The notes under the pieces were generated by a model. The model searched no databases and was not told where the DNA came from. It saw only the letters and a list, made by a program, of their open reading frames with translations. Of a DNA stretch of 64,000 nucleotides, positions 39,908 through 60,483 are shown piece by piece (position 1 is the stretch's first letter; each line of letters starts with the position of its first letter). Location of the stretch: NCBI GenBank assembly GCA_943355005.1, contig CALRDV010000001.1, positions 15,410-79,409 of the forward strand. The letters run 5' to 3'. Made by a program: the position numbers and the translations under genes. This DNA is from Patescibacteria group bacterium (GTDB lineage: Bacteria; Patescibacteriota; Microgenomatia; UBA1400; MFAQ01).

Positions 39908-40384
39908 ATGAGATCAAAGAAAACCCCAGCCAAAACTATTAAACTCGACGCAGTCTTCGGTGACGCTCTTGTTCACAAGATGATCACTGGTGTTATGCAA
40001 GACGGACGCAAGTCGGTCGCTGCCAAACAAGTTTACAAAGCAATTGATCTCGTTGCAGAGCAATCCAAGAAAGACGGTATTGAATTCTTAAACGAAGCTT
40101 TGAATAACATTAAGCCAACCATCGAAGTCCGTTCCCGCCGAGTCGGAGGTGCCTCTTACCAGGTTCCTACCCCTATCCGTCCGGAAAGACGTGATTCCCT
40201 CGCTATCCGTTGGCTCATCAATGCCGCCAAGGCTCGAGGCTCCAATCCTTACCGAACTTTAGCTGACAAGCTCGCTGCCGAAATCATGGAAGCTCATGAA
40301 AATGCCGGAAATGCCATCAAAAAGAAACTAGACACTCACAAAATGGCCGAAGCCAATAAAGCCTTTGCACACTTCCGCTGGTAG
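39908..40384 (+). CDS. rpsG: 30S ribosomal protein S7
   Basis: 158 aa, ...EVRSRRVGGASYQVP..., KMAEANKAFAHFRW. Confidence 0.95.
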   Translation: MRSKKTPAKTIKLDAVFGDALVHKMITGVMQDGRKSVAAKQVYKAIDLVAEQSKKDGIEFLNEALNNIKPTIEVRSRRVGGASYQVPTPIRPERRDSLAIRWLINAAKARGSNPYRTLADKLAAEIMEAHENAGNAIKKKLDTHKMAEANKAFAHFRW

Positions 40385-40391
40385 TCCCTCC

Positions 40392-40433
40392 CAGAGGAGT
40401 CTCCTTGTAGGTAATCCTGCGAGGAGACTCCTC
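40392..40433 (+). other. Long hairpin (11-bp stem GAGGAGTCTCC / GGAGACTCCTC) directly after the rpsG stop
   Basis: No U-tract. Followed 20 nt later by a canonical terminator. Confidence 0.5.
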
Positions 40434-40450
40434 ACATTGGTCCCTATCCC

Positions 40451-40480
40451 AAAAACTCCCGCTTCAGGCGGGATTTTTGG
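40451..40480 (+). terminator. Rho-independent terminator after rpsG (start of island A)
   Basis: CTCCCGC-ttca-GGCGGGA-TTTTTGG. Confidence 0.8.
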
Positions 40481-40497
40481 TATTATAAGACAATATG

Positions 40498-40506
40498 TGA
40501 TATAAT
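40498..40506 (+). promoter_or_regulatory. extended -10 TGaTATAAT + ATCTCC (cassette promoter)
   Basis: T-tract of the upstream terminator abuts the -10. Consensus with other cassettes: TATAATATCCCAGAAC. Confidence 0.5.
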
Positions 40507-40547
40507 ATCTCCAAAGCACATTATCTTAATCTCGATTGGAGGCTATT

Positions 40548-40817
40548 TTGGAAAATAAATTGATTCTTATGCTGGACGAGGGCACTATTGGTCTTATTCT
40601 GCCCGGAGATAAGTTGTTGGTAATCGAATGCAACACAGTTGCCAGCATGGGAAGAATTCCTGAAGATAAGTACTTTATTCACCCCAAAGATTTGGCAAGT
40701 CTCCCTGCGGAAGTTAAAATAGCCATCAACGCCGTATGTGTATCGCATGGCATAACTTCACCTTTTGAGAGGTTTGTCGCAGAATCTTCCGTCAGAAGTC
40801 CAGGATCCTACGATTGA
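40548..40817 (+). CDS. cassette A1: hypothetical small protein (start TTG 40548 after GGAGG; alternatives 40536/40569)
   Basis: GGAGG at 40538-40542, 5 nt before the TTG. Confidence 0.45.
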   Translation: MENKLILMLDEGTIGLILPGDKLLVIECNTVASMGRIPEDKYFIHPKDLASLPAEVKIAINAVCVSHGITSPFERFVAESSVRSPGSYD

Positions 40818-40823
40818 TAAAAT

Positions 40824-40850
40824 AGCACCCTCATCTAGAGGGTGTTTTTA
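40824..40850 (+). terminator. Rho-independent terminator
   Basis: CACCCTC-atcta-GAGGGTG-TTTTT. Immediately followed by TATAAT 40855-40860 + ATCCCAT. Confidence 0.8.
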
Positions 40851-40907
40851 TTGGTATAATATCCCATATAAGTATTGCACGTTCATTCTAAAACCAAGGA
40901 GGTTTCC

Positions 40908-41474
40908 ATGGGAATATTTCAAGGTCATCAAGTTTTGGCTCTTGTTGTTGATATTTTTTGGCCGCTCATTACGGCCATTTCAATTAGGTTTTTAACGAAA
41001 GCTCATACAAGACCAAATCGTAGATTGATGTATTGGGAGCTACCCATTATTTACATTATCATTTTGTTTCTTCCCAACTCGGTATACGCCATGTTGGAAT
41101 TGAAACATTTGTTGATGGTAGATACGGTAGCGGATATTCCAAACATCTGGTCCTTTATTGTTTTTGGCGGAATCTCTCTATTTGGATATCTGGTGACTCT
41201 TTATCAGAATATTCTAATTGCGAATTTTTTTACCAAAACTAAAACAGGCCACATGAAAGCATTTGCTCTTCTATCGATTGTCGGTGGTTTTGGTGGTGTT
41301 GCGGGTCTGTTAAATTTTAATAGTTACGAGGGAATTCTGACCCCACAGGTTTTGTATCTCATTACTAAGATGATTTTTCACCACCCGGTACTGATCGTTC
41401 TTGGAATTGGTGTTTCGGTGTTTATCTTTTTATCTACAGTTTTAGTGCGTCGCATTCAAAAGCCTTCCTCTTAA
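40908..41474 (+). CDS. cassette A2: polytopic membrane protein (188 aa, ~6 TM)
   Basis: SD AAGGAGG at 40896-40902, 5 nt before the ATG. The ORF-track N-extension is discarded. Confidence 0.6.
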   Translation: MGIFQGHQVLALVVDIFWPLITAISIRFLTKAHTRPNRRLMYWELPIIYIIILFLPNSVYAMLELKHLLMVDTVADIPNIWSFIVFGGISLFGYLVTLYQNILIANFFTKTKTGHMKAFALLSIVGGFGGVAGLLNFNSYEGILTPQVLYLITKMIFHHPVLIVLGIGVSVFIFLSTVLVRRIQKPSS

Positions 41475-41491
41475 CAGGAAGGTTTTTTTAT
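41463..41491 (+). terminator. Rho-independent terminator (stop codon in loop)
   Basis: CCTTCC-tcttaaca-GGAAGG-TTTTTTT. Confidence 0.8.
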
Positions 41492-41611
41492 TCCAAGATA
41501 TATCTATACTACAAATAAAATAGGTAGTATATTAATGTCTCTGGAGGAAAAATATAGAATCTACTTGTGTAGTTAAACTTTGTTTCCAAATGTTCTTTAA
41601 AAAGGAGATTA

Positions 41612-42184
41612 ATGAAAAAGACATTTTCTTTTGTGATGATTTCTGTATGTGCAACTCTGCTCATTTCCTGTACCGCAGTATTTTCTTCACTTGGCTACGT
41701 TCCCAGAGCAGATCTGGACGCCGCCACTAAGCAAGTTAGTGATTTAAATACCAAGCTGACTACGGCAAATACCGAGATCGAGAAGTTGAAGACCGGTAAT
41801 GCCGAGAAAGATGTAAAACTCACGGACTATCAAAGCCAAATAACCGAAGCCCAGTCCGACCTTACCAAGATTAAAAATCAGCTTTCTCAATCGGACCTCA
41901 CGCTCGAAGATTGGAAATCACTTCAGTGCGAACAAGACTGGGATATGCTTTGGTACAAAGCCATTTTCAGCTGGCCTCTCACGGATTATTCCAACCTGCC
42001 GGACTACTTTCATTACTATATTGCAGTGACTCAGTGGTCCACCGATCCAAAATGGCAATTGGACGATTCGAAGGCTTTTTCGGTTGTCCTTTTCGATCGG
42101 GATAACGATCAATCCATGGCGATTGACACGGTCAATGACTGTGTGATCTTGAATCCGGATGTGTTCGATTTTTTAGAAAAATAG
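41612..42184 (+). CDS. cassette A3: lipoprotein (lipobox LLISC) with coiled-coil region
   Basis: MKKTFSFVMISVCATLLISC. SD AAGGAG 5 nt upstream. Confidence 0.65.
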   Translation: MKKTFSFVMISVCATLLISCTAVFSSLGYVPRADLDAATKQVSDLNTKLTTANTEIEKLKTGNAEKDVKLTDYQSQITEAQSDLTKIKNQLSQSDLTLEDWKSLQCEQDWDMLWYKAIFSWPLTDYSNLPDYFHYYIAVTQWSTDPKWQLDDSKAFSVVLFDRDNDQSMAIDTVNDCVILNPDVFDFLEK

Positions 42185-42223
42185 ACACGGTGCAAGCCAA
42201 AGCTCCTTCACCCTAATCCATTA

Positions 42224-42250
42224 TCGGCCGCTCACGCGGCCGGTTTTTTA
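42224..42250 (+). terminator. Rho-independent terminator
   Basis: GGCCGC-tcac-GCGGCC-GGTTTTTT. Followed by GAGATAATCACCCCAG, a promoter-like sequence. Confidence 0.8.
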
Positions 42251-42304
42251 TATGAGATAATCACCCCAGTACTTTGACTAAATCTTTTTGTTTAAGGAGA
42301 TCTC

Positions 42305-43765
42305 ATGAAACCCAGTCTCAAATTGCTAGATCACGATCTTGTATTGCGGGTTGTTCGCGAAGCCTTTTCGTTGCTTATGAAGCCGGGAATTAAAGTTCAG
42401 AACTTGGAAGCCCGCCAATTACTTACCTCTGCCGGTGCCACAGTAAACGAAGAAACTCAGGTTGTTCAAATTCCTGAATATGTCGTTCGTCTGGCGCTGA
42501 ACTCGGTTCCTTCAGAATTTTGGCTTTATGATCTGGCCGGGAAACCTACTGTTCACTACGGTGGAGACTCAGTCCACTTTGATCCGGGTTCTTCCGGCAT
42601 CAATATTCTGGATCCGGAAACTCTTGAACATCGTGAAGCTACAACTGCTGACTTGATTCGAATTATCAAAGTCGCCGAAGGTATTCCTCAGTACGACGCC
42701 CAGTCCACTGCCGTCGTCTGTAGCGATGTCCCCCAGGAGATTCAGGATTTGTATCGACTTTATCTCGTCCTTCTTCACTCATCCAAGCCAATTGTTACCG
42801 GCGCATTTTCTAACAAGAACATCGGCAACATGATTGAGATGCTCGCTATCATGTCCGGCAGTGCCGGAAATCTTCGGCGTTATCCTCGAGCTGTCTTTGA
42901 TGTTTGTCCGTCTCCTCCTCTCATCTGGTCAAACTTTGGTGCCGGCAATCTCATGGCTCTCGCTCGAGCCGGTGTTCCGGCCGAAATGATTTCGATGCCC
43001 ATCGCCGGTGCCGCTGCTCCCGTAACCCTTATCGGTTCCGTTGTTCAGCACACGGCCGAGTCGCTCGCCGGCATCGTCATTCATCAGCTGGCCTATCCCG
43101 GTTCTCCCATTGTCTGGGGCGGAGCTCCTGCCATTATGGACATGCGCAAGGGTAGCACTCCCATGGGTGCCATCGAGACTGCCATGATCGATTGTTCATA
43201 CGCCCAGGTTGGTAAATATCTTGGTGTTCCTACCCACACTTATTTGGGAGGAAGTGACGCCAAGTCGGTCGACGCTCAAGCCGGGCTCGAAGGAGCCATG
43301 TCCATTCTCATCGGCGCCCTCAGTGGTGTCAATATGATTTCCGGCGCCGGCATGATCGACTCACTTCTTTGCATGAGTCCGGAAAAGCTGGTTATTGATG
43401 CCGAATCCATTGCTATGGCTCGTCGCATGCTAGTAGGAATGAAAACACCCACAGACACTTTGGCTACCGGATTTTACGAAGGAGTCAATTTTAAAGGCGG
43501 AGATTTCCTTAAGCAGCGCATCACCATGCAACTTTTCCAGCAGGAGCAAAATCTTCCCGGTCGCGTCATCGATCGAGGCTCCACTCGCGAATGGAAAAAT
43601 TCGGGTAAATTGGACACATTTGGCCGGGCCAAGCTCGAAGTCAAAAAGCTTGTGGCTTCGTACCAATATCCAGACCTAAATCTCGCTCGCGAAGCTGCCT
43701 TGCACCACTTTGTCCGCAATCTGGCCAAAAAAGCCGGCGTGACCAATCTCCCGACTCTCGAATAA
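42305..43765 (+). CDS. cassette A4: MttB-superfamily (trimethylamine/glycine-betaine:corrinoid) methyltransferase homolog, no in-frame amber
   Basis: 486 aa. Matches MttB-family blocks: ...HTAESLAGIVIHQLAYPGSPIVWGGAP...GSDAKSVDAQAGLEGAMS...SGAGMIDS...SPEKLVIDAE... SD AAGGAGA. Confidence 0.65.
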   Translation: MKPSLKLLDHDLVLRVVREAFSLLMKPGIKVQNLEARQLLTSAGATVNEETQVVQIPEYVVRLALNSVPSEFWLYDLAGKPTVHYGGDSVHFDPGSSGINILDPETLEHREATTADLIRIIKVAEGIPQYDAQSTAVVCSDVPQEIQDLYRLYLVLLHSSKPIVTGAFSNKNIGNMIEMLAIMSGSAGNLRRYPRAVFDVCPSPPLIWSNFGAGNLMALARAGVPAEMISMPIAGAAAPVTLIGSVVQHTAESLAGIVIHQLAYPGSPIVWGGAPAIMDMRKGSTPMGAIETAMIDCSYAQVGKYLGVPTHTYLGGSDAKSVDAQAGLEGAMSILIGALSGVNMISGAGMIDSLLCMSPEKLVIDAESIAMARRMLVGMKTPTDTLATGFYEGVNFKGGDFLKQRITMQLFQQEQNLPGRVIDRGSTREWKNSGKLDTFGRAKLEVKKLVASYQYPDLNLAREAALHHFVRNLAKKAGVTNLPTLE

Positions 43766-43771
43766 TCATCT

Positions 43772-43804
43772 GTCATTGCGAGCGCTGCGCGGCAATCTAC
43801 CTGC
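43772..43804 (+). repeat. Hairpin repeat GTCATTGCGAGCGCTGCGCGGCAATCTACCTGC
   Basis: Same GTCATTGCGAG...GGCAATCTACCTGC family as 30017/30087. Confidence 0.85.
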
Positions 43805-43821
43805 TATAAAACTTCTCCCTC

Positions 43822-43850
43822 CACCCCGTCTAAACAGCGGGGTTTTTATT
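43822..43850 (+). terminator. Rho-independent terminator
   Basis: CCCCG-tctaaacag-CGGGG-TTTTTATT. Confidence 0.75.
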
Positions 43851-43930
43851 GGCCTATAGTTGATTTACACCCCAGTTTTTGATAGAATACCCCAAAGTTT
43901 AACTCTTTAATAACTAAATGGAGGTGACCC

Positions 43931-44296
43931 GTGTGGCACTCGATTATGCGCTTTTTTAAGTCTTTCGGGAAAAAACCGGTTCAAAAAAAAGATAACGTAG
44001 TTCTTGTGAACATCGATTATCAGCCGGATTTTTTCTTCCTTCCCACTCATTTTTCCGGCAACGACCCGATCAGACAAATTTCAGAACGGGATCTGGATCT
44101 TTTGCTCAGATGGTACTCAGGTGTTCCCTCAACTCCCGATCCGATTTGGGATGCAATTATGCGAGGTGATGAGGAGCGCCCTTTACCGGCAGTTACCGAC
44201 CTGAACCAAGCTATACAAGACATGGAGACAATGTGGCTGAACAAGGGAAATCTCCCTGACGCAGAAATATTCAAAGCCTTCAAACCGGAGATCTAA
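43931..44296 (+). CDS. cassette A5: hypothetical protein (121 aa, GTG start after GGAGGTGA)
   Basis: SD GGAGGT 6 nt upstream. Confidence 0.5.
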   Translation: MWHSIMRFFKSFGKKPVQKKDNVVLVNIDYQPDFFFLPTHFSGNDPIRQISERDLDLLLRWYSGVPSTPDPIWDAIMRGDEERPLPAVTDLNQAIQDMETMWLNKGNLPDAEIFKAFKPEI

Positions 44297-44297
44297 A

Positions 44298-44648
44298 ATG
44301 GATACCGAAGATGTTCTTATACTTCTGGCATTATTATTACTGCTCGTTATCGTTTTCTTGGTAATTGGATTGGGGACCCAAAGTTCCCCCGGTGTAGAAA
44401 AGCTTCCTAATGGACAAATTTTTGTCCCTGACGGTGCAACTCTTCGAGAGTATAACTCCCTGTCAAAAATGTTTTACTCAATCACCCCTCAAGGGGACAC
44501 TGTCACTATCAATCTTATAGTTGATATGAAAGTTAAGCTCTGTGACCCCAATTGCACTAAAGAAGTTTGGACAGGCTTTATTAGTTGGACCTTCGAAAAA
44601 GTCCCGGGAGGCATAAACGTCACCCCTCCATTTGCTTCTGTTCCCTAG
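44298..44648 (+). CDS. cassette A6: signal-anchored small protein (116 aa)
   Basis: Starts 1 nt after the A5 stop. TM LILLALLLLLVIVFLVIGL. Confidence 0.5.
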   Translation: MDTEDVLILLALLLLLVIVFLVIGLGTQSSPGVEKLPNGQIFVPDGATLREYNSLSKMFYSITPQGDTVTINLIVDMKVKLCDPNCTKEVWTGFISWTFEKVPGGINVTPPFASVP

Positions 44649-44671
44649 CTTTAGCCTCGCCTTCACCATCC

Positions 44672-44713
44672 GTCATTGCGAATCTCGTACTCGAGCTGTG
44701 GCAATCTCACTCC
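44672..44713 (+). repeat. Hairpin repeat GTCATTGCGAATCTCGTACTCGAGCTGTGGCAATCTCACTCC
   Basis: Near-identical to the 62948 copy. Contains the nested palindrome CTCGtaCTCGAG. Confidence 0.85.
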
Positions 44714-44716
44714 ACC

Positions 44717-44746
44717 CACCCCGTCTAACCAACGGGGTTTTATTTT
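44717..44746 (+). terminator. Rho-independent terminator
   Basis: CCCCG-tctaaccaa-CGGGG-TTTTATTTTATT. Confidence 0.75.
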
Positions 44747-44747
44747 A

Positions 44748-45041
44748 TTAACACATATCGGCCACCATCGGCATCACCTCAATGCACGGCGTTCCCCAGC
44801 TATGATTCTTCAGAATAAATTCATGTATATCTGTCAATTTAATTTTGGTCGTCTTCAAACTAATCAAAACCACTTCTTCCCCCGAAGCCCCCTTCGGTCC
44901 CGGATACATAAGGAATGTGGGTGTAATCTTCGCCGTGCCACACAGTTCTTTATCCAGCATCTCTTTACAAAGTTTCTCTGCCTCTTTCTTGGTCGGGCAG
45001 GGGATATTGATAACCACCGGATCCATATCACTTATATTCAT
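44748..45041 (-). CDS. cutA: CutA1-like divalent-cation tolerance protein (PII-like fold)
   Basis: ...CGTAKITPTFLMYPGP..EEVVLISLKTT....HSWGTPCIEVMPM parallels the CutA pattern (C..i.p.i.siY.WkG...EeevllllKT...HpYEvPEiialpi). Confidence 0.55.
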   Translation of the reverse strand: MNISDMDPVVINIPCPTKKEAEKLCKEMLDKELCGTAKITPTFLMYPGPKGASGEEVVLISLKTTKIKLTDIHEFILKNHSWGTPCIEVMPMVADMC

Positions 45042-45193
45042 ACCTGTATTTTTTCACCAAGGTCTTTAATAAGCAATCTTTTTATACATGGCGTCATTCG
45101 AGTGATTATGGTAAAATTAGCCTCGTGAATAACTCTCCTTCAGTGGGGAGGTTTAATTCGTCAAAATAATTAATCAATAACCAATAACCAAAA

Positions 45194-47317
45194 ATGGCCG
45201 CTCCTACAGGAAAAAAAGTCCCTCTAGACCGTGTTAGAAACACCGGTATTATCGCTCATATCGACGCAGGTAAAACCACAACCACAGAACGAATTCTTTT
45301 TTACACCGGTAAGTCCTACAAAATTGGTGATATTGACGAAGGCAACACCCAGATGGACTGGATGGAGCAAGAGAAGGAACGCGGCATAACCATCGTTTCC
45401 GCTGCTACCACCGCTTTCTGGACTCCTGTACTTCCTAATGCCCGCTTCAAAGAAGAGCACCGCTTCAACATCATCGATACTCCGGGTCACGTCGACTTTA
45501 CCGCCGAAGTTGAGCGCTCTCTCCGCGTTCTAGATGGGGGAGTCATCGTCTTGGATGCCGGTTCAGGTGTTCAGTCTCAAACTGAAACTGTCTGGCGCCA
45601 AGCAGACAAGTACAAAGTTCCTCGTATTGCTTTCATCAATAAAATGGACGTTTTGGGTGCCGACTACATGGCTACCATCAATGACGTTCATGAGAAGCTA
45701 GGTGCCAAGACTGCTGTCATGGCTCTACCTCTCGGTGTCGAAAACACTTTCCGTGGCATTATTATGCTTTTGGAAAGACAGACCATCATTTGGAAAGGTG
45801 ATGAGACAGGCGCTCTCTACGAAGTTACCGAAGGCTTCCCTGAAGACATGAAAGACGAATGCGAGCTCGAGCGCGCTAAGCTCATCGAGTCCATCGTTGA
45901 ATTTGACGAAGTTCTGATGGGTGAGTACCTCGAAGGCAAAGAGCCTTCTATGGACGCTCTCAAAGCCGCTCTCCGCGTCGCTACCTGTGCCAATCAAATC
46001 GTGCCTGTCTTCCCTGGTTCCTCACTCCGCAACAAAGGTGTTCAGCCTCTTCTTGATGCTGTCGTCGACTTCCTCCCTTCACCTCTCGACAAGCCAACCA
46101 TCACCGGTACCGATCCTGAAACCAACGAAGAAGTCACCCGCAAGGCTGATCCTTCTGAGCCTTTTTCAGGCTTAGCTTTCAAAATTCAAGCCGATCCTCA
46201 TGTGGGTAAGCTCACCTACGTCCGTGTATACTCCGGCAAAATTGCTTCAGGCTCATTTGTCTACAACGCCAGTAAAGGCGAAAGAGAGCGTTTGGGACGC
46301 CTCATGCTTATGCATGCGAACACCCGAGAAGAAGTCGCCGAGGCTACCGCGGGTGAAATCGTCGGTGTCGTAGGTTTAAAAATGACCAAAACAGGTGATA
46401 CTCTCTGTGACGAAAACCATCAGCTGGTTCTCGAATCCATCAACTTCCCTGATCCTGTTATCTCTCTGGCTATCGAGCCGAAGACCAAAGCCGATCAAGA
46501 AAAGCTTGATCTCGCTCTAAGTCGTTTAGCCGAAGAAGATCCTACCTTCAGAATCAAAACCGACCACGAAACCGGTCAAACTGTCATCTCAGGCATGGGT
46601 GAGCTTCACCTTGAAATCTTGGTTGATCGTTTACGCCGTGAATTCAAAGTCGATGCTTCTACCGGTGCTCCTCAGGTCGCTTACCGTGAAACCGTTACCA
46701 AAACCGCTCAAGGCGAAGGTAAATTCATCCGTCAGTCGGGTGGACGCGGTCAATACGGTCACTGTATTCTTATTGTTACTCCCAAGTCTAGAGGCGAAGG
46801 GTTTACCTTCACCAACAAGGTCGTTGGAGGCTCTATTCCTAAAGAATTCATCGGACCTATCGAAAAAGGTGTCCGCGAAGCTTTGGACAATGGCTTAATT
46901 GCCGGTTTCCCCATGGTTGATCTCGATGTCGCTGTTATAGATGGAAGTTACCACGACGTTGACTCTTCCGAAATGTCCTTCAAGATTGCCGGTTCTATGG
47001 CTCTTCAAGACGCCGTCAAGAATGCTTCACCTGTCATCCTCGAGCCCATTATGAAGGTTGAAGTCACTACTCCTGAAGCCAACATGGGTGACATCATTGG
47101 TGATCTTTCCAGTCGCAGAGCTCAAATTGGTGGCACCGCCCAGCGTGGAAATGCCCGCGTTATAACTGCTACAGTGCCCCTTTCCGAGCTTTCCGCTTAC
47201 TCGACTGCTATCCGTTCTCTCACCGCGGGACGTGCCAACTACTATATGGAGCCTTCCCATTATCAAGACCTTCCTGCTAGCTTGGCCGCAAAGCTATTGA
47301 AATCTCCGACGAACTAG
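45194..47317 (+). CDS. fusA: elongation factor G
   Basis: [24 protein letters not shown]...[13 protein letters not shown]. Confidence 0.95.
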
Positions 47318-57344: not shown

Positions 57345-57396
57345 TTCTAAAAGGCTAGTTGAGCCTGTTTATAGTATTGAACTATAGGAAATTTTG

Positions 57397-57405
57397 TGAT
57401 ATAAT
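57397..57405 (+). promoter_or_regulatory. extended -10 TGaTATAAT (cassette B1 promoter)
   Basis: GTGATATAATCCACG. Same word as the island A promoter at 40498. Confidence 0.5.
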
Positions 57406-57451
57406 CCACGCATCGTTTAGAACGCCCACATTCACAAAAAAGGAGGGCATC

Positions 57452-58168
57452 ATGCCCAGTTATGTCGAAAAATTTCGCTTAGACCATCTAATATCCATGC
57501 TCAGACAGGCTCGTGGAGATATTTTTGCCATCATCTCGGCAATCGCCGAGTATGAGCTTTGGCACCAGGACTACCTTGAGCGCAATGCTCAGGCCGCTTC
57601 CGTACGGAAGCAGTATCTTCAAGGTTTCGAAGAAGATATGGCTCAGTTGACCCGTGCCGACTTTCAGCACCCCACGGCGGGGACTCACGCCGTAGATGGC
57701 CAATTGGCTGTTGGTGGAGAGTCTGAACTTGATGGGTTTGATCTTCTCCAGCCAATTAAGGGTGATCGTGTTCCGAATCCAGATTACCCGGAATCCTGCA
57801 GTATTGGGTCAGATGGATGGACGGCAGCTGCGTTTTCGGGGCGGACTCCTCGTATCGTCCCATTCGATTCCGAGAACGATGATGTGTGGGAGATGGAGGA
57901 GCCAGCTGAAGATGTAGATTGGGACGAGCTTGCCTTTGTCTTTAGGCAGGTTGGTTTCGACACAAGACAGCTGTACGGCATCACCAACATCTCTGATATC
58001 CATATCGATTATCATCGGCGCGGTCTCGCTGTACTCCCAAAGGGCGCACGTCACAATTCACCTCTCGGTCGCGAAACCTGGGAAGATCGGTTTGTCGCTG
58101 AGATACGTGAAAGCGCATCGAAAAACAACTGGCACCCCTGGCTGATCGGCACCAACTTGTTCGAATGA
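57452..58168 (+). CDS. cassette B1: hypothetical acidic protein (238 aa)
   Basis: SD AAGGAGGG 57440-57447, 4 nt before the ATG. The ORF-track N-extension is discarded. Confidence 0.6.
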   Translation: MPSYVEKFRLDHLISMLRQARGDIFAIISAIAEYELWHQDYLERNAQAASVRKQYLQGFEEDMAQLTRADFQHPTAGTHAVDGQLAVGGESELDGFDLLQPIKGDRVPNPDYPESCSIGSDGWTAAAFSGRTPRIVPFDSENDDVWEMEEPAEDVDWDELAFVFRQVGFDTRQLYGITNISDIHIDYHRRGLAVLPKGARHNSPLGRETWEDRFVAEIRESASKNNWHPWLIGTNLFE

Positions 58169-58175
58169 TCCCAAA

Positions 58176-58205
58176 CCACACCCTAACCGGTGTGGTTTTT
58201 ATTTT
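58176..58205 (+). terminator. Rho-independent terminator
   Basis: CCACACC-ctaacc-GGTGTGG-TTTTTATTTT. Followed by TATAAT (58211-58216) ATCCTAGAACATT. Confidence 0.8.
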
Positions 58206-58260
58206 AGTAGTATAATATCCTAGAACATTGTAATTCTATCTATTGCTTAGGAGGCAACTT

Positions 58261-58683
58261 ATGTTTAGTTTAAGTCTGTTGGGAACGGCCACAGACAATC
58301 ATTCGGCTTACCTGGTTCGACCAGGAATGATGAACGGCGCCTTACATTTCTTTCATGAAATTAAGTGGGTCGAGTTCGAAGGGCTGAGGGTGAACGGAGA
58401 TTGGGGACAAGCCAGGTTTGTTTCTTCGAATATTGTCGGCAGTCATATCTATCAGCTGACCGAATTAACATCCGAAGATCCGGAGAAGCTCGAGATGACC
58501 GAGTTCCACATCGCCATCCACTTCTCATCCGCCACCCCCCAAGAAGCCTCTGAGGCTATATTGGACTGGGCAATTCACTCTGGCGCCAGTGAAGGCGCCA
58601 CCATTGAACCGGCCAACGCAGAAGGAACCAAATGGTTCATATGTTTACCGGCATTGTTCAAGTTCAGTCTCGAGATCGTCTAA
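58261..58683 (+). CDS. cassette B2: hypothetical protein (140 aa), possibly VOC/glyoxalase-like fold
   Basis: SD AGGAGG 58249-58254. The VOC resemblance (…GTKWFICLP..FKFSLEIV) is weak. Confidence 0.55.
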   Translation: MFSLSLLGTATDNHSAYLVRPGMMNGALHFFHEIKWVEFEGLRVNGDWGQARFVSSNIVGSHIYQLTELTSEDPEKLEMTEFHIAIHFSSATPQEASEAILDWAIHSGASEGATIEPANAEGTKWFICLPALFKFSLEIV

Positions 58684-58686
58684 TTC

Positions 58687-58718
58687 AAATCCACTCTATA
58701 TAGGGTGGATTTTTATTT
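58687..58718 (+). terminator. Rho-independent terminator
   Basis: ATCCAC-tctatatagg-GTGGAT-TTTTATTTT. Followed by TATAAT (58726-58731) ACCCCAGAACGTT. Confidence 0.8.
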
Positions 58719-58778
58719 TCTGATGTATAATACCCCAGAACGTTTCTAGAAAAACAACACTTTGAAATCGGAGGAAAT

Positions 58779-59162
58779 ATGAGCTTTACACCCCAAAATG
58801 CTTTAGGGAAAGCAAATTCTAATTTACAGGGAACCGAATTTTTTCTTGGAGCCAAAAGAGCACTCGGTGAAAAATTTACTAAAGCCGATGTCTTTATCCT
58901 CCTTATTGCACGAATTAAGGAAATTTTAAGCTTTAAGGATGGTCGGGATGAAAAATGGCTGGGCATGTTAAAAGATGCAATCAATCAAAACATGACCTCG
59001 GCGCTGAAGGAATATTTATCAAATCAGATAGAATATCTTCGAACATCCAATCCTGATTACGAAATATTGATCTTGACTCCTGCACTTGTAAGCCTTTCTT
59101 TTAGTTCAAATTTAGATCCATATCTTCTTCTCGGACTAGAAGAGTTCTACAAAACCCTCTAG
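58779..59162 (+). CDS. cassette B3: hypothetical protein (127 aa)
   Basis: SD GGAGG 6 nt upstream. Confidence 0.55.
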   Translation: MSFTPQNALGKANSNLQGTEFFLGAKRALGEKFTKADVFILLIARIKEILSFKDGRDEKWLGMLKDAINQNMTSALKEYLSNQIEYLRTSNPDYEILILTPALVSLSFSSNLDPYLLLGLEEFYKTL

Positions 59163-59167
59163 GCACT

Positions 59168-59196
59168 CGCCCACCTTCACCGGTGGGTTTTTTATT
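59168..59196 (+). terminator. Rho-independent terminator
   Basis: CCCACC-ttcacc-GGTGGG-TTTTTTATT. Followed by TATAAT (59205-59210) ATCCCAGAACATT. Confidence 0.8.
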
Positions 59197-59242
59197 ATGG
59201 GTGTTATAATATCCCAGAACATTAAATTAAGGAGGTTAGATA

Positions 59243-59611
59243 ATGGAAACCATAGAAACGATCCAATTTGTTATTGAGCTCATTGGCAGTGTATTTAAGA
59301 TTGTTCAGATGGCAATTCATCTGGTTTTTGTCGGCATCGTTACTCTATTCCGTCCCGGTTCCGATAAAGAGTGGCGCCAGGCATGGATGTGGGTTGTCTT
59401 CCCGGTATTTTTTGTGGGAGGCTTCGGCATCCTCGTCTCATGGTTAATCCACTACATATTTGCTTTGCTGGGATTTACTCTTCTGGGTTGGATTCTGATA
59501 TTGATCTGGCTATTTTACTTTTGGGTTGGTGAGCCATTTATGTATATTACCTACCCGGAGTATGAAATTAACCGCGAGGAGAAATCTCATTGGATCGACA
59601 CCGGCGAATAA
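59243..59611 (+). CDS. cassette B4: small membrane protein (122 aa, 3 TM)
   Basis: SD AAGGAGG. Co-transcribed with B5 (no terminator between them). Confidence 0.55.
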   Translation: METIETIQFVIELIGSVFKIVQMAIHLVFVGIVTLFRPGSDKEWRQAWMWVVFPVFFVGGFGILVSWLIHYIFALLGFTLLGWILILIWLFYFWVGEPFMYITYPEYEINREEKSHWIDTGE

Positions 59612-59627
59612 ATCTCTGGAGGTAAAA

Positions 59628-60074
59628 ATGTTCAAATCTCTTAGTGAACAGATCGACGATGCACTTGCAAACCTTACGATACTTGAACTTCGTATCGGTC
59701 ACGCACGTCAATCTGGGACAATGCTTACGAAAGAAAAATTGTTTGAGTACTTGATGGCCTGGGCTAATTATCGTAATTTCTTTGCTCTTTCGCATTACCG
59801 CCATGAATCAAAATGGAGTGGCATTATTCTCGATTGCCAAGCAAAGATCATGACCCAACAGTTAAAGGACTTTCTCAAAGAAATCAAAGATAATCTCGAA
59901 GCTCGCATCCCACCTACCGAAAGAATCGTTTTGGGGTACAAACCAATCGATGTTCTTCACCCTCTCCCGGCCGCCATTTCCGTTAGCAACATACTAGTTG
60001 AAAACGAAAAGCTATTTACGACTTTGCCACTCCTACTGTTGGCACTTATCGAAATATCTGACTCCAACACATAG
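59628..60074 (+). CDS. cassette B5: hypothetical protein (148 aa)
   Basis: SD GGAGGT 59618-59623. Internal start chosen from the longer ORF 59526. Confidence 0.5.
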   Translation: MFKSLSEQIDDALANLTILELRIGHARQSGTMLTKEKLFEYLMAWANYRNFFALSHYRHESKWSGIILDCQAKIMTQQLKDFLKEIKDNLEARIPPTERIVLGYKPIDVLHPLPAAISVSNILVENEKLFTTLPLLLLALIEISDSNT

Positions 60075-60100
60075 CCCACCACCCGGTGGGTTTTTTTGTT
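60073..60100 (+). terminator. Rho-independent terminator
   Basis: CCCACC-accc-GGTGGG-TTTTTTT. Followed by TACAAT (60100-60105). Confidence 0.8.
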
Positions 60101-60138
60101 ACAATTTCAGTGAACTTTCAAATTTAGATTGGAGACAC

Positions 60139-60483
60139 ATGATTACTCATGTCAAAATTAGAGCACCTTTCGACCACGTTGACGGACAGACTTTTTATGT
60201 CACACCGGAATTAAAAGAAAAAATATTTATTCTTGGTGCAACTCTCGTGCTTGATCACAACAATTTTTGTATGATTACGCCTGAGGGTGAAGTGGTAAGA
60301 ACAAAGTGGACCGTAGTCGAAGTTATTTCCGACAGACCTACCGGCTACAATGATCGCAAAATGGTTCGAGATATCGTAGGTGGCTTAATAGCTGTTAGTT
60401 CCATCGGACGAGCTTCTTGGGGACAAATATCTATAAAATTCTTTGAAGGGTTGGTTTTTTTCAACGAAGAAGAGGTTGTTTAG
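60139..60483 (+). CDS. cassette B6: hypothetical protein (114 aa)
   Basis: SD GGAGA 5 nt upstream. Internal start of ORF 59998. Confidence 0.5.
   Translation: MITHVKIRAPFDHVDGQTFYVTPELKEKIFILGATLVLDHNNFCMITPEGEVVRTKWTVVEVISDRPTGYNDRKMVRDIVGGLIAVSSIGRASWGQISIKFFEGLVFFNEEEVV

Follow-up and report, generated by a model that had tools for sequence, protein, structure and literature searches.

A 64-kb stretch of DNA from a Patescibacteria group bacterium (hereafter, the window) carries, inside its str operon, a gene for an MttB-superfamily (PF06253) methyltransferase of the non-pyrrolysine type (42305..43765, + strand, 486 aa, stop TAA), which was assigned from its open reading frame (ORF), a profile match, dN/dS and mapped pocket residues. 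We consider it probable, if well short of certain, that this gene encodes a functional 'MT1'-type methyltransferase for a methylated amine other than trimethylamine or glycine betaine, that it was captured once and vertically inherited afterwards, and that its partners are unlinked or its corrinoid is non-cognate or scavenged. Proteins of the MttB family are TIM-barrel 'MT1' proteins, which bind a methylated amine and use one of its methyl groups to methylate Co(I) in a corrinoid, and the str operon is among the most conserved operons in bacteria. To our knowledge, all characterised MttB-family enzymes act within a multi-protein corrinoid relay, and bacteria of the Candidate Phyla Radiation (CPR) are, as far as we know, thought to be almost without methylotrophic or cobamide-dependent catabolism.

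The reading frame runs uninterrupted from the ATG at 42305 to the TAA at 43763-43765, and its product matches the PF06253 MTTB profile nearly full-length (E=1.4e-87; score 294 bits, cutoff 25; protein residues 3-472 on profile positions 29-494 of 500). The original prediction, made from the sequence of the window, had proposed a non-pyrrolysine, 'MtgB-like' member of this superfamily on the basis of sequence motifs and the lack of an in-frame UAG; the four motifs quoted were all found in the product between residues 255 and 367 (AGIVIHQLAYPGSPIVWGG at 255-273, DAQAG at 323-327, SGAGMIDS at 346-353 and SPEKLVIDAE at 358-367). Membership of the superfamily is borne out by the profile search, and the modelled fold agrees: the AlphaFold2 model (pLDDT 71 and pTM 0.79, i.e., moderate confidence), when compared by Foldseek with the solved structures 7xcl, 9yce and 2qne, gave TM-scores of 0.80–0.82 (E ~5e-30) and thus shares their TIM-barrel fold. 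The absence of pyrrolysine is likewise sustained, since the frame holds no in-frame UAG or internal stop and Gly316 aligns with Pyl334 of M. barkeri MttB. By sequence, the closest solved structures are M. barkeri MttB (7xcl, 1e-59), D. hafniense MtgB (9yce/2qne, ~1e-52) and the S. meliloti homolog 4yyc, the window protein being slightly nearer to MttB than to MtgB (206 vs 182 bits), with ~29% identity to each.

The third part of that proposal, the resemblance to MtgB, did not survive the comparison of pocket residues, for which the published MttB and MtgB positions were carried over through alignments to the solved structures. The register of these alignments is sound because the residue types at all published positions fit a constant numbering offset. 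In M. barkeri MttB (7xcl, 7xcn), Gly110 and Tyr364 activate pyrrolysine, and Thr111 and Gly372 are also defined pocket positions (PMC9842639). Although the window protein shares with this enzyme the superfamily, the TIM barrel and the C-terminal dimerization/docking loop (TM-score 0.81, best sequence match in the PDB), it has Ser96/Ser97 in place of Gly110/Thr111, Ser346 in place of Tyr364 and Leu354 in place of Gly372, and no MttC lies adjacent. In MtgB, betaine is held by cation-pi contacts with Y97 and F356 and by its carboxylate through R312 and H348 (PMC13080624). The window protein resembles D. hafniense MtgB as a non-pyrrolysine superfamily member with a full-length alignment and a TM-score of 0.80–0.82, whereas Tyr97, Arg312, His348 and Phe356 are replaced by Ser96, His311, Ser346 and Leu354. 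Since 4/4 of the experimentally defined betaine-binding residues differ, glycine betaine cannot be assumed as the substrate; the score, too, is nearer to MttB than to MtgB.

That the protein truly is a glycine-betaine (MtgB) or trimethylamine (MttB) methyltransferase, as public annotation ('trimethylamine--corrinoid protein Co-methyltransferase' or 'MttB6') and the original prediction imply, is highly improbable in our view. Full-length alignment to both enzymes and a strong match to TIGR02369, the pyrrolysine-MttB equivalog (E=4.5e-109), would favour it, but the 365 bits of this match stay well under the equivalog cutoff of 525 bits, identity to either enzyme is only ~29%, the catalytic G110 and Y364 and the UAG/Pyl codon expected of MttB are replaced (S96, S346 and Gly316), and so are all four MtgB residues. 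Both assignments were dropped on the residue tests and the TIGR02369 score. As judged from its sequence, the window protein belongs to a distinct MttB subfamily with a small-residue pocket and is predicted to act on neither trimethylamine nor glycine betaine, and the Ser/Ser/His/Ser/Leu pocket common to the Chloroflexota and CPR members of this subfamily may mark a separate substrate class.

The relationships of this subfamily point to a donor outside the CPR. Among the GTDB species representatives, relatives with at least 60% identity are confined to three CPR genomes and to Chloroflexota, for the most part Anaerolineales (Villigracilis and Brevefilum among them), the next group being Krumholzibacteria at 42–50% identity. 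When 190 sequences were placed in a neighbour-joining tree, all 13 from CPR grouped as a single clade within the Chloroflexota orthologs; bootstrap values, obtained on a 63-taxon subset rooted on Krumholzibacteria, were 90/100 for CPR monophyly and 84/100 for the nesting. The phylogeny that had been suggested for finding the donor lineage thus leads to Anaerolineales/Chloroflexota, and it is consistent with a single acquisition long ago from an Anaerolineales-type Chloroflexota, followed by vertical inheritance. The base composition of the gene (GC 0.51, and 0.51 at third codon positions, GC3) is only slightly above that of its neighbours (fusA, GC 0.50; rpoB/rpoC, GC 0.46 and GC3 0.42–0.44), which is consistent with an old, ameliorated transfer.

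In the window, the gene order is rpoB-rpoC-rpsL-rpsG, then an island holding the methyltransferase gene, then fusA-tuf and the S10 operon, so that the unusual location inside the str operon, between rpsG (ribosomal protein S7; 39908..40384, +) and fusA (elongation factor G, EF-G; 45194..47317, +), stands as originally described. This placement is not particular to the window. Eight CPR lineages with 72–88% protein identity were compared, namely the window itself (L001), L011–L013, L009/L010/L089, L002–L005/L014/L095, L007/L008, L175, L176 and L177, and 8/8 have the MttB gene between rpsG and fusA, in the orientation of the operon. Its start follows rpsG by ~140 bp in L176, and its stop precedes fusA by ~150 bp in L007 and L009, while the companions in the island vary: several lineages have a radical-SAM (S-adenosylmethionine)/PLP (pyridoxal phosphate) pair, two have DUF1361, two a lipoprotein-like gene and one a CCA-adding enzyme, CutA1 occurs in the window, and there are assorted small ORFs. 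Moreover, lineage pairs with more similar EF-G tend to have more similar MttB as well (r=0.75 between the pairwise identities, with the same two pairs being closest for both proteins), which fits vertical inheritance after a single insertion. The gene is thus a stable, vertically inherited feature of the Collierbacteria clade rather than a one-off insertion.

The host genome itself is Collierbacteria-like. The nearest named relative of the protein (74% identity) is 'MttB6' of Candidatus Collierbacteria GW2011_GWB1_44_6, the EF-G of the window is 90–95% identical to that of Collierbacteria loci, and its informational and housekeeping content (dnaJ, nusA, infB, pnp, RNase J, ftsK, alaS, sortase and yceG, plus many ORFs without a family match) fits a CPR genome; tRNA and Rfam scans of the window gave no matches. 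It had been conceded at the outset that a contaminating contig would undo the whole case, and this escape is now closed, since the identical protein occurs on two independently assembled contigs (326 kb at NCBI, 223 kb at ENA) and the rpsG-MttB-fusA order recurs in eight CPR lineages from separate samples. An artefact of any kind, i.e., chimeric assembly, mis-binning of a Chloroflexota fragment or decay to a pseudogene, has in our opinion a next to negligible chance of being the explanation. It could call on the GC and GC3 of the gene, slightly above those of rpoB/rpoC, and on a 'Pseudomonadales' title carried by one related contig, but the adjacent fusA has a similar GC, assemblies from ENA, NCBI, JGI and Logan show the arrangement, and the gene has an uninterrupted frame with a dN/dS of 0.06–0.11. 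Contamination or chimerism and a pseudogene were therefore both rejected. Note that the contig in question (L013, CAYGCQ010000016.1), labelled 'uncultured Pseudomonadales bacterium', has the same gene order as the window with EF-G 95% and MttB 88% identical, and by these resemblances it is a mislabelled or mis-binned contig of Collierbacteria type.

Selection on the CPR gene is as strong as in its presumed source. The dN/dS of 0.06–0.11 within CPR is indistinguishable from the 0.06–0.09 within the Chloroflexota orthologs, which are direct orthologs (e.g., in STL-CHL3, L006) with 60–71% identity and the same length, and of 219 positions with a conservation of 95% or more among 88 Chloroflexota orthologs, 192 keep their residue in at least 90% of the CPR sequences. 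Six of the seven mapped pocket positions (S96, S97, H311, S346, L354 and I207) are invariant in the 13 CPR and 88 Chloroflexota sequences, and the seventh, M231, is Met or Val in both clades. In the 7xcn structure, MttB touches the corrinoid protein mainly through its dimerization loop (PMC9842639). In the homologous segment, conservation is 0.85 in CPR vs 0.81 in Chloroflexota, with a consensus agreement of 0.82, and relaxed constraint on this docking loop was looked for and not found in the 13 CPR sequences when set against the 88 Chloroflexota ones. Low dN/dS, a conserved pocket and a conserved docking loop suggest together that the CPR enzyme would still bind the substrate of its Chloroflexota orthologs and probably still docks a corrinoid carrier; from the same features, we infer corrinoid-dependent methyl transfer.

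In the Chloroflexota, such a carrier is encoded next door. As an example, the cluster of the Anaerolineales metagenome-assembled genome STL-CHL3 (L006, 5362-16956) contains, besides the ortholog, three further MttB paralogs, a GntR regulator, peptidases of the S9 and M20 families, a cognate corrinoid protein (TIGR02370, 217 bits, cutoff 215) and a methyl-tetrahydrofolate (methyl-THF):corrinoid methyltransferase (NF005719, 286 bits, cutoff 259). Among the Chloroflexota ortholog loci of at least 15 kb searched by tblastn, a corrinoid protein is present in 55/57, a GntR regulator in 52, an M20 peptidase in 52 and a pterin methyltransferase in 39. In contrast, none of these four was found in any of the 19 CPR loci, and the CPR gene is single-copy, without operon partners and placed in the str operon. 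The claim that no partner gene is adjacent is upheld well beyond the immediate neighbours, since genes for B12-binding or pterin-binding proteins are absent from the 64-kb window, from the 10 kb upstream and from the ~8 kb downstream, both flanks holding housekeeping genes only; this orphan status is a local one, as it refers to ~82 kb of the 326-kb contig. The transfer appears to have stripped the gene of its operon partners, which would now be unlinked or absent. Note that the ~55 other Chloroflexota loci contain nearly always 2–4 MttB paralogs and an M20 amidohydrolase/carboxypeptidase, often together with an S9 peptidase and an amino-acid permease, and that this cluster content hints at N-methylated amino acids or peptide-derived compounds as substrates.

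A coherent history can be proposed from these observations. An ancestor of the Collierbacteria clade would have taken the gene once from an Anaerolineales-type Chloroflexota donor, and the gene would have landed between rpsG and fusA, a permissive site in the str operon, as a unit with its own ribosome-binding site and flanking terminators, to be passed down vertically in this interval ever since. The transfer would have cut it off from the corrinoid protein, the methyl-THF:corrinoid methyltransferase and the GntR regulator, and the CPR enzyme would work with unlinked partners elsewhere in the genome or with a non-cognate or scavenged corrinoid, on a substrate that would be the same as that of the Chloroflexota orthologs, i.e., neither trimethylamine nor glycine betaine. 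Distal and shared corrinoid modules have a precedent in MtgB/MtgC/MtgD of Ruegeria, where in genome-streamlined B12 auxotrophs an MttB-family enzyme relies on a shared, non-dedicated corrinoid module (PMC12478193). The Ruegeria pomeroyi system is aerobic, and its corrinoid core is shared with methionine synthesis; it differs from the present case in that its enzyme acts on glycine betaine and that no MtgC/MtgD-like gene was seen in the CPR sequence covered.

Several points weigh against this history. The ~82 kb of contig, and the sequence up to 10 kb from the gene in each CPR lineage, yielded neither a corrinoid protein nor a pterin methyltransferase or RamA-type activase, and CPR genomes are small and metabolically sparse, so that a complete three-component system (MT1, corrinoid protein and MT2, with or without a RamA activase) elsewhere is not guaranteed. 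The Pyl-equivalent position is Gly in 13/13 CPR sequences, while Ala predominates among the Chloroflexota orthologs (78 sequences, with Ser in 7, Val in 2 and Gly in 1), and this is the one clade-specific change near the active site. In addition, the AlphaFold2 model is of low confidence in the active-site loops 315–355 and 378–430 and too uncertain there for pocket geometry, the tree is a neighbour-joining one with short internal branches, and we know of no biochemically characterised member of the subfamily.

Some of these same observations speak for a stand-alone or repurposed enzyme, which after losing its operon partners might use free or scavenged cobamide, a host-supplied factor or another methyl acceptor, or might mainly bind or process a metabolite of an Anaerolineales host. 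We regard this main rival as rather unlikely, though deserving attention: partners were found in 0/19 CPR loci and are missing from ~82 kb of contig, when 55/57 Chloroflexota loci have a corrinoid-protein gene, the Gly at the Pyl-equivalent position sets the CPR clade apart from most donors, and a donor lineage that is exclusively Chloroflexota would fit a physical association. MttB-family enzymes are, moreover, routinely assayed in vitro by methylating free cob(I)alamin (PMC13080624). However, at the other pocket residues and in the docking loop conservation equals that of the Chloroflexota orthologs with partners, which speaks against an altered mechanism, the absence of partners from this genome concerns the ~82 kb covered, and no MttB-family member is known to function without a corrinoid protein. 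In its most specific form, which we hold to be unlikely, the Collierbacteria clade would run a single Anaerolineales-derived MT1 without a corrinoid protein, MT2 or activase of its own, and scavenged cobamide or factors of an Anaerolineales host would serve to demethylate a host-specific methylated amine; if true, it would be the first enzyme of the MttB family to work alone, and its gene would serve as a genomic marker of symbiosis between Collierbacteria and Anaerolineales.

The neighbourhood of ribosomal genes raises the question of a role linked to translation, i.e., a co-option of the enzyme for methylation or regulation in connection with the ribosome or elongation factors. The rpsG-fusA position is invariant in the eight lineages, and in two of them the MttB stop lies only ~150 bp upstream of fusA on the same strand. 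Nevertheless, such a role seems to us very improbable, because in the window terminator-like hairpins stand on both sides of the gene and three genes, one of them on the opposite strand, come between it and fusA, because the catabolic Chloroflexota orthologs have the same pocket, and because other unrelated inserts (rplO-secY and map-infA) exist in the same super-operon. As these other inserts are tolerated, the rpsG-fusA location may simply be a permissive site.

Altogether, the protein family is already known, and the Collierbacteria homologs have been labelled 'MttB6' since deposition; what is new is the clade-wide fixation in the rpsG-fusA interval, the Chloroflexota origin, strong purifying selection on a gene that has apparently lost all its operon partners, and a pocket unlike those of MtgB and MttB. 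Our literature search found nothing specific on MttB in CPR, Patescibacteria or Collierbacteria, or characterising the Anaerolineae/Chloroflexota subfamily. A partner-stripped MttB under strong selection in CPR could reveal an unrecognised cobamide-dependent route of C1 or nitrogen scavenging or, alternatively, an MT1 enzyme that may work outside the canonical three-component system, and the exclusively Chloroflexota origin suggests a candidate host or partner lineage for the uncultured Collierbacteria.

At the level of local signals, the gene looks like a self-contained unit because terminator-like hairpins flank both sides. The upstream one (42223..42244, +; 9-bp stem with 7 GC pairs, followed by a T-run), which is a consensus pattern match only, would end the upstream gene and isolate MttB transcriptionally; the other, also a pattern match, lies just 3′ of the MttB stop (43823..43843, +), with a near-identical copy at 44718-44738. 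The gene had been credited with its own promoter and Shine-Dalgarno sequence. The latter is present (AAGGAG, 42294..42299, +; visible in the sequence itself, with a spacing of 5 nt to the ATG), while a consensus scan of the 60 nt upstream of the gene revealed no sigma-70-like promoter.

The variable island fills the rpsG-fusA interval over 4.8 kb (40385..45193), and MttB is its sole constant gene across the sampled CPR lineages. Upstream of MttB lie genes for a DUF1361-like integral membrane protein (40875..41474, +) and for a 190-aa protein whose N-terminus is signal/lipobox-like and which contains a coiled coil (41612..42184, +), the latter with a 54% identical homolog upstream of MttB in the lineage at 88% identity. 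A DUF1361 homolog (31–34% identical) stands directly upstream of MttB in Collierbacteria GW2011_GWB1_44_6 as well, and this membrane protein adjoining MttB in two CPR lineages (the second copy at 2238-2681 in L005) could be an MttB-linked transporter or a coincidence. Downstream, two small ORFs of 121 and 116 aa (43931..44648, +) are followed by a gene for a CutA1-family protein (97 aa; 44748..45041, −) that is restricted to this lineage. The two small ORFs are bracketed by an imperfect direct repeat of ~80 nt (43767-43846 and 44667-44741), which holds the near-identical terminator hairpin ACCCCGTCTAA[A/C]CA[G/A]CGGGGT (0 expected by chance), and this bracketing suggests that the ORF pair was inserted or duplicated after MttB was already in place. 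Small ORFs p82 (40569-40817) and p116 (44298-44648) have 40–51% identical homologs just 3′ of rpsG in L002–L005, L007 and L177, so that some of the small island genes are old residents of the interval.

In other lineages, a divergent pair of genes for a radical-SAM protein (291 aa) and a PLP fold-type-I protein (313 aa), absent from the window, adjoins MttB (L009, 8086-9899, −; also L002–L005, L007, L008, L014, L089, L095 and L177). A role of this pair in cobamide (CobD-like) or pyrrolysine biosynthesis was considered, but the profile scores give little to go on (CobD 39 bits with a cutoff of 290; HisC 38 bits); the best PDB match of the PLP protein is HisC (E=3e-3) and the radical-SAM protein is only weakly MoaA/viperin-like, matches that are all weak and non-diagnostic. 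Finally, six consecutive small ORFs (114–238 aa) without a Pfam match lie between rplO and secY (57359-60483 in the window; 6545-9576 in L174), and two further insert ORFs lie between map and infA (12943-14319 in L174), so that the ribosomal super-operon tolerates insertions at several sites and not only between rpsG and fusA.

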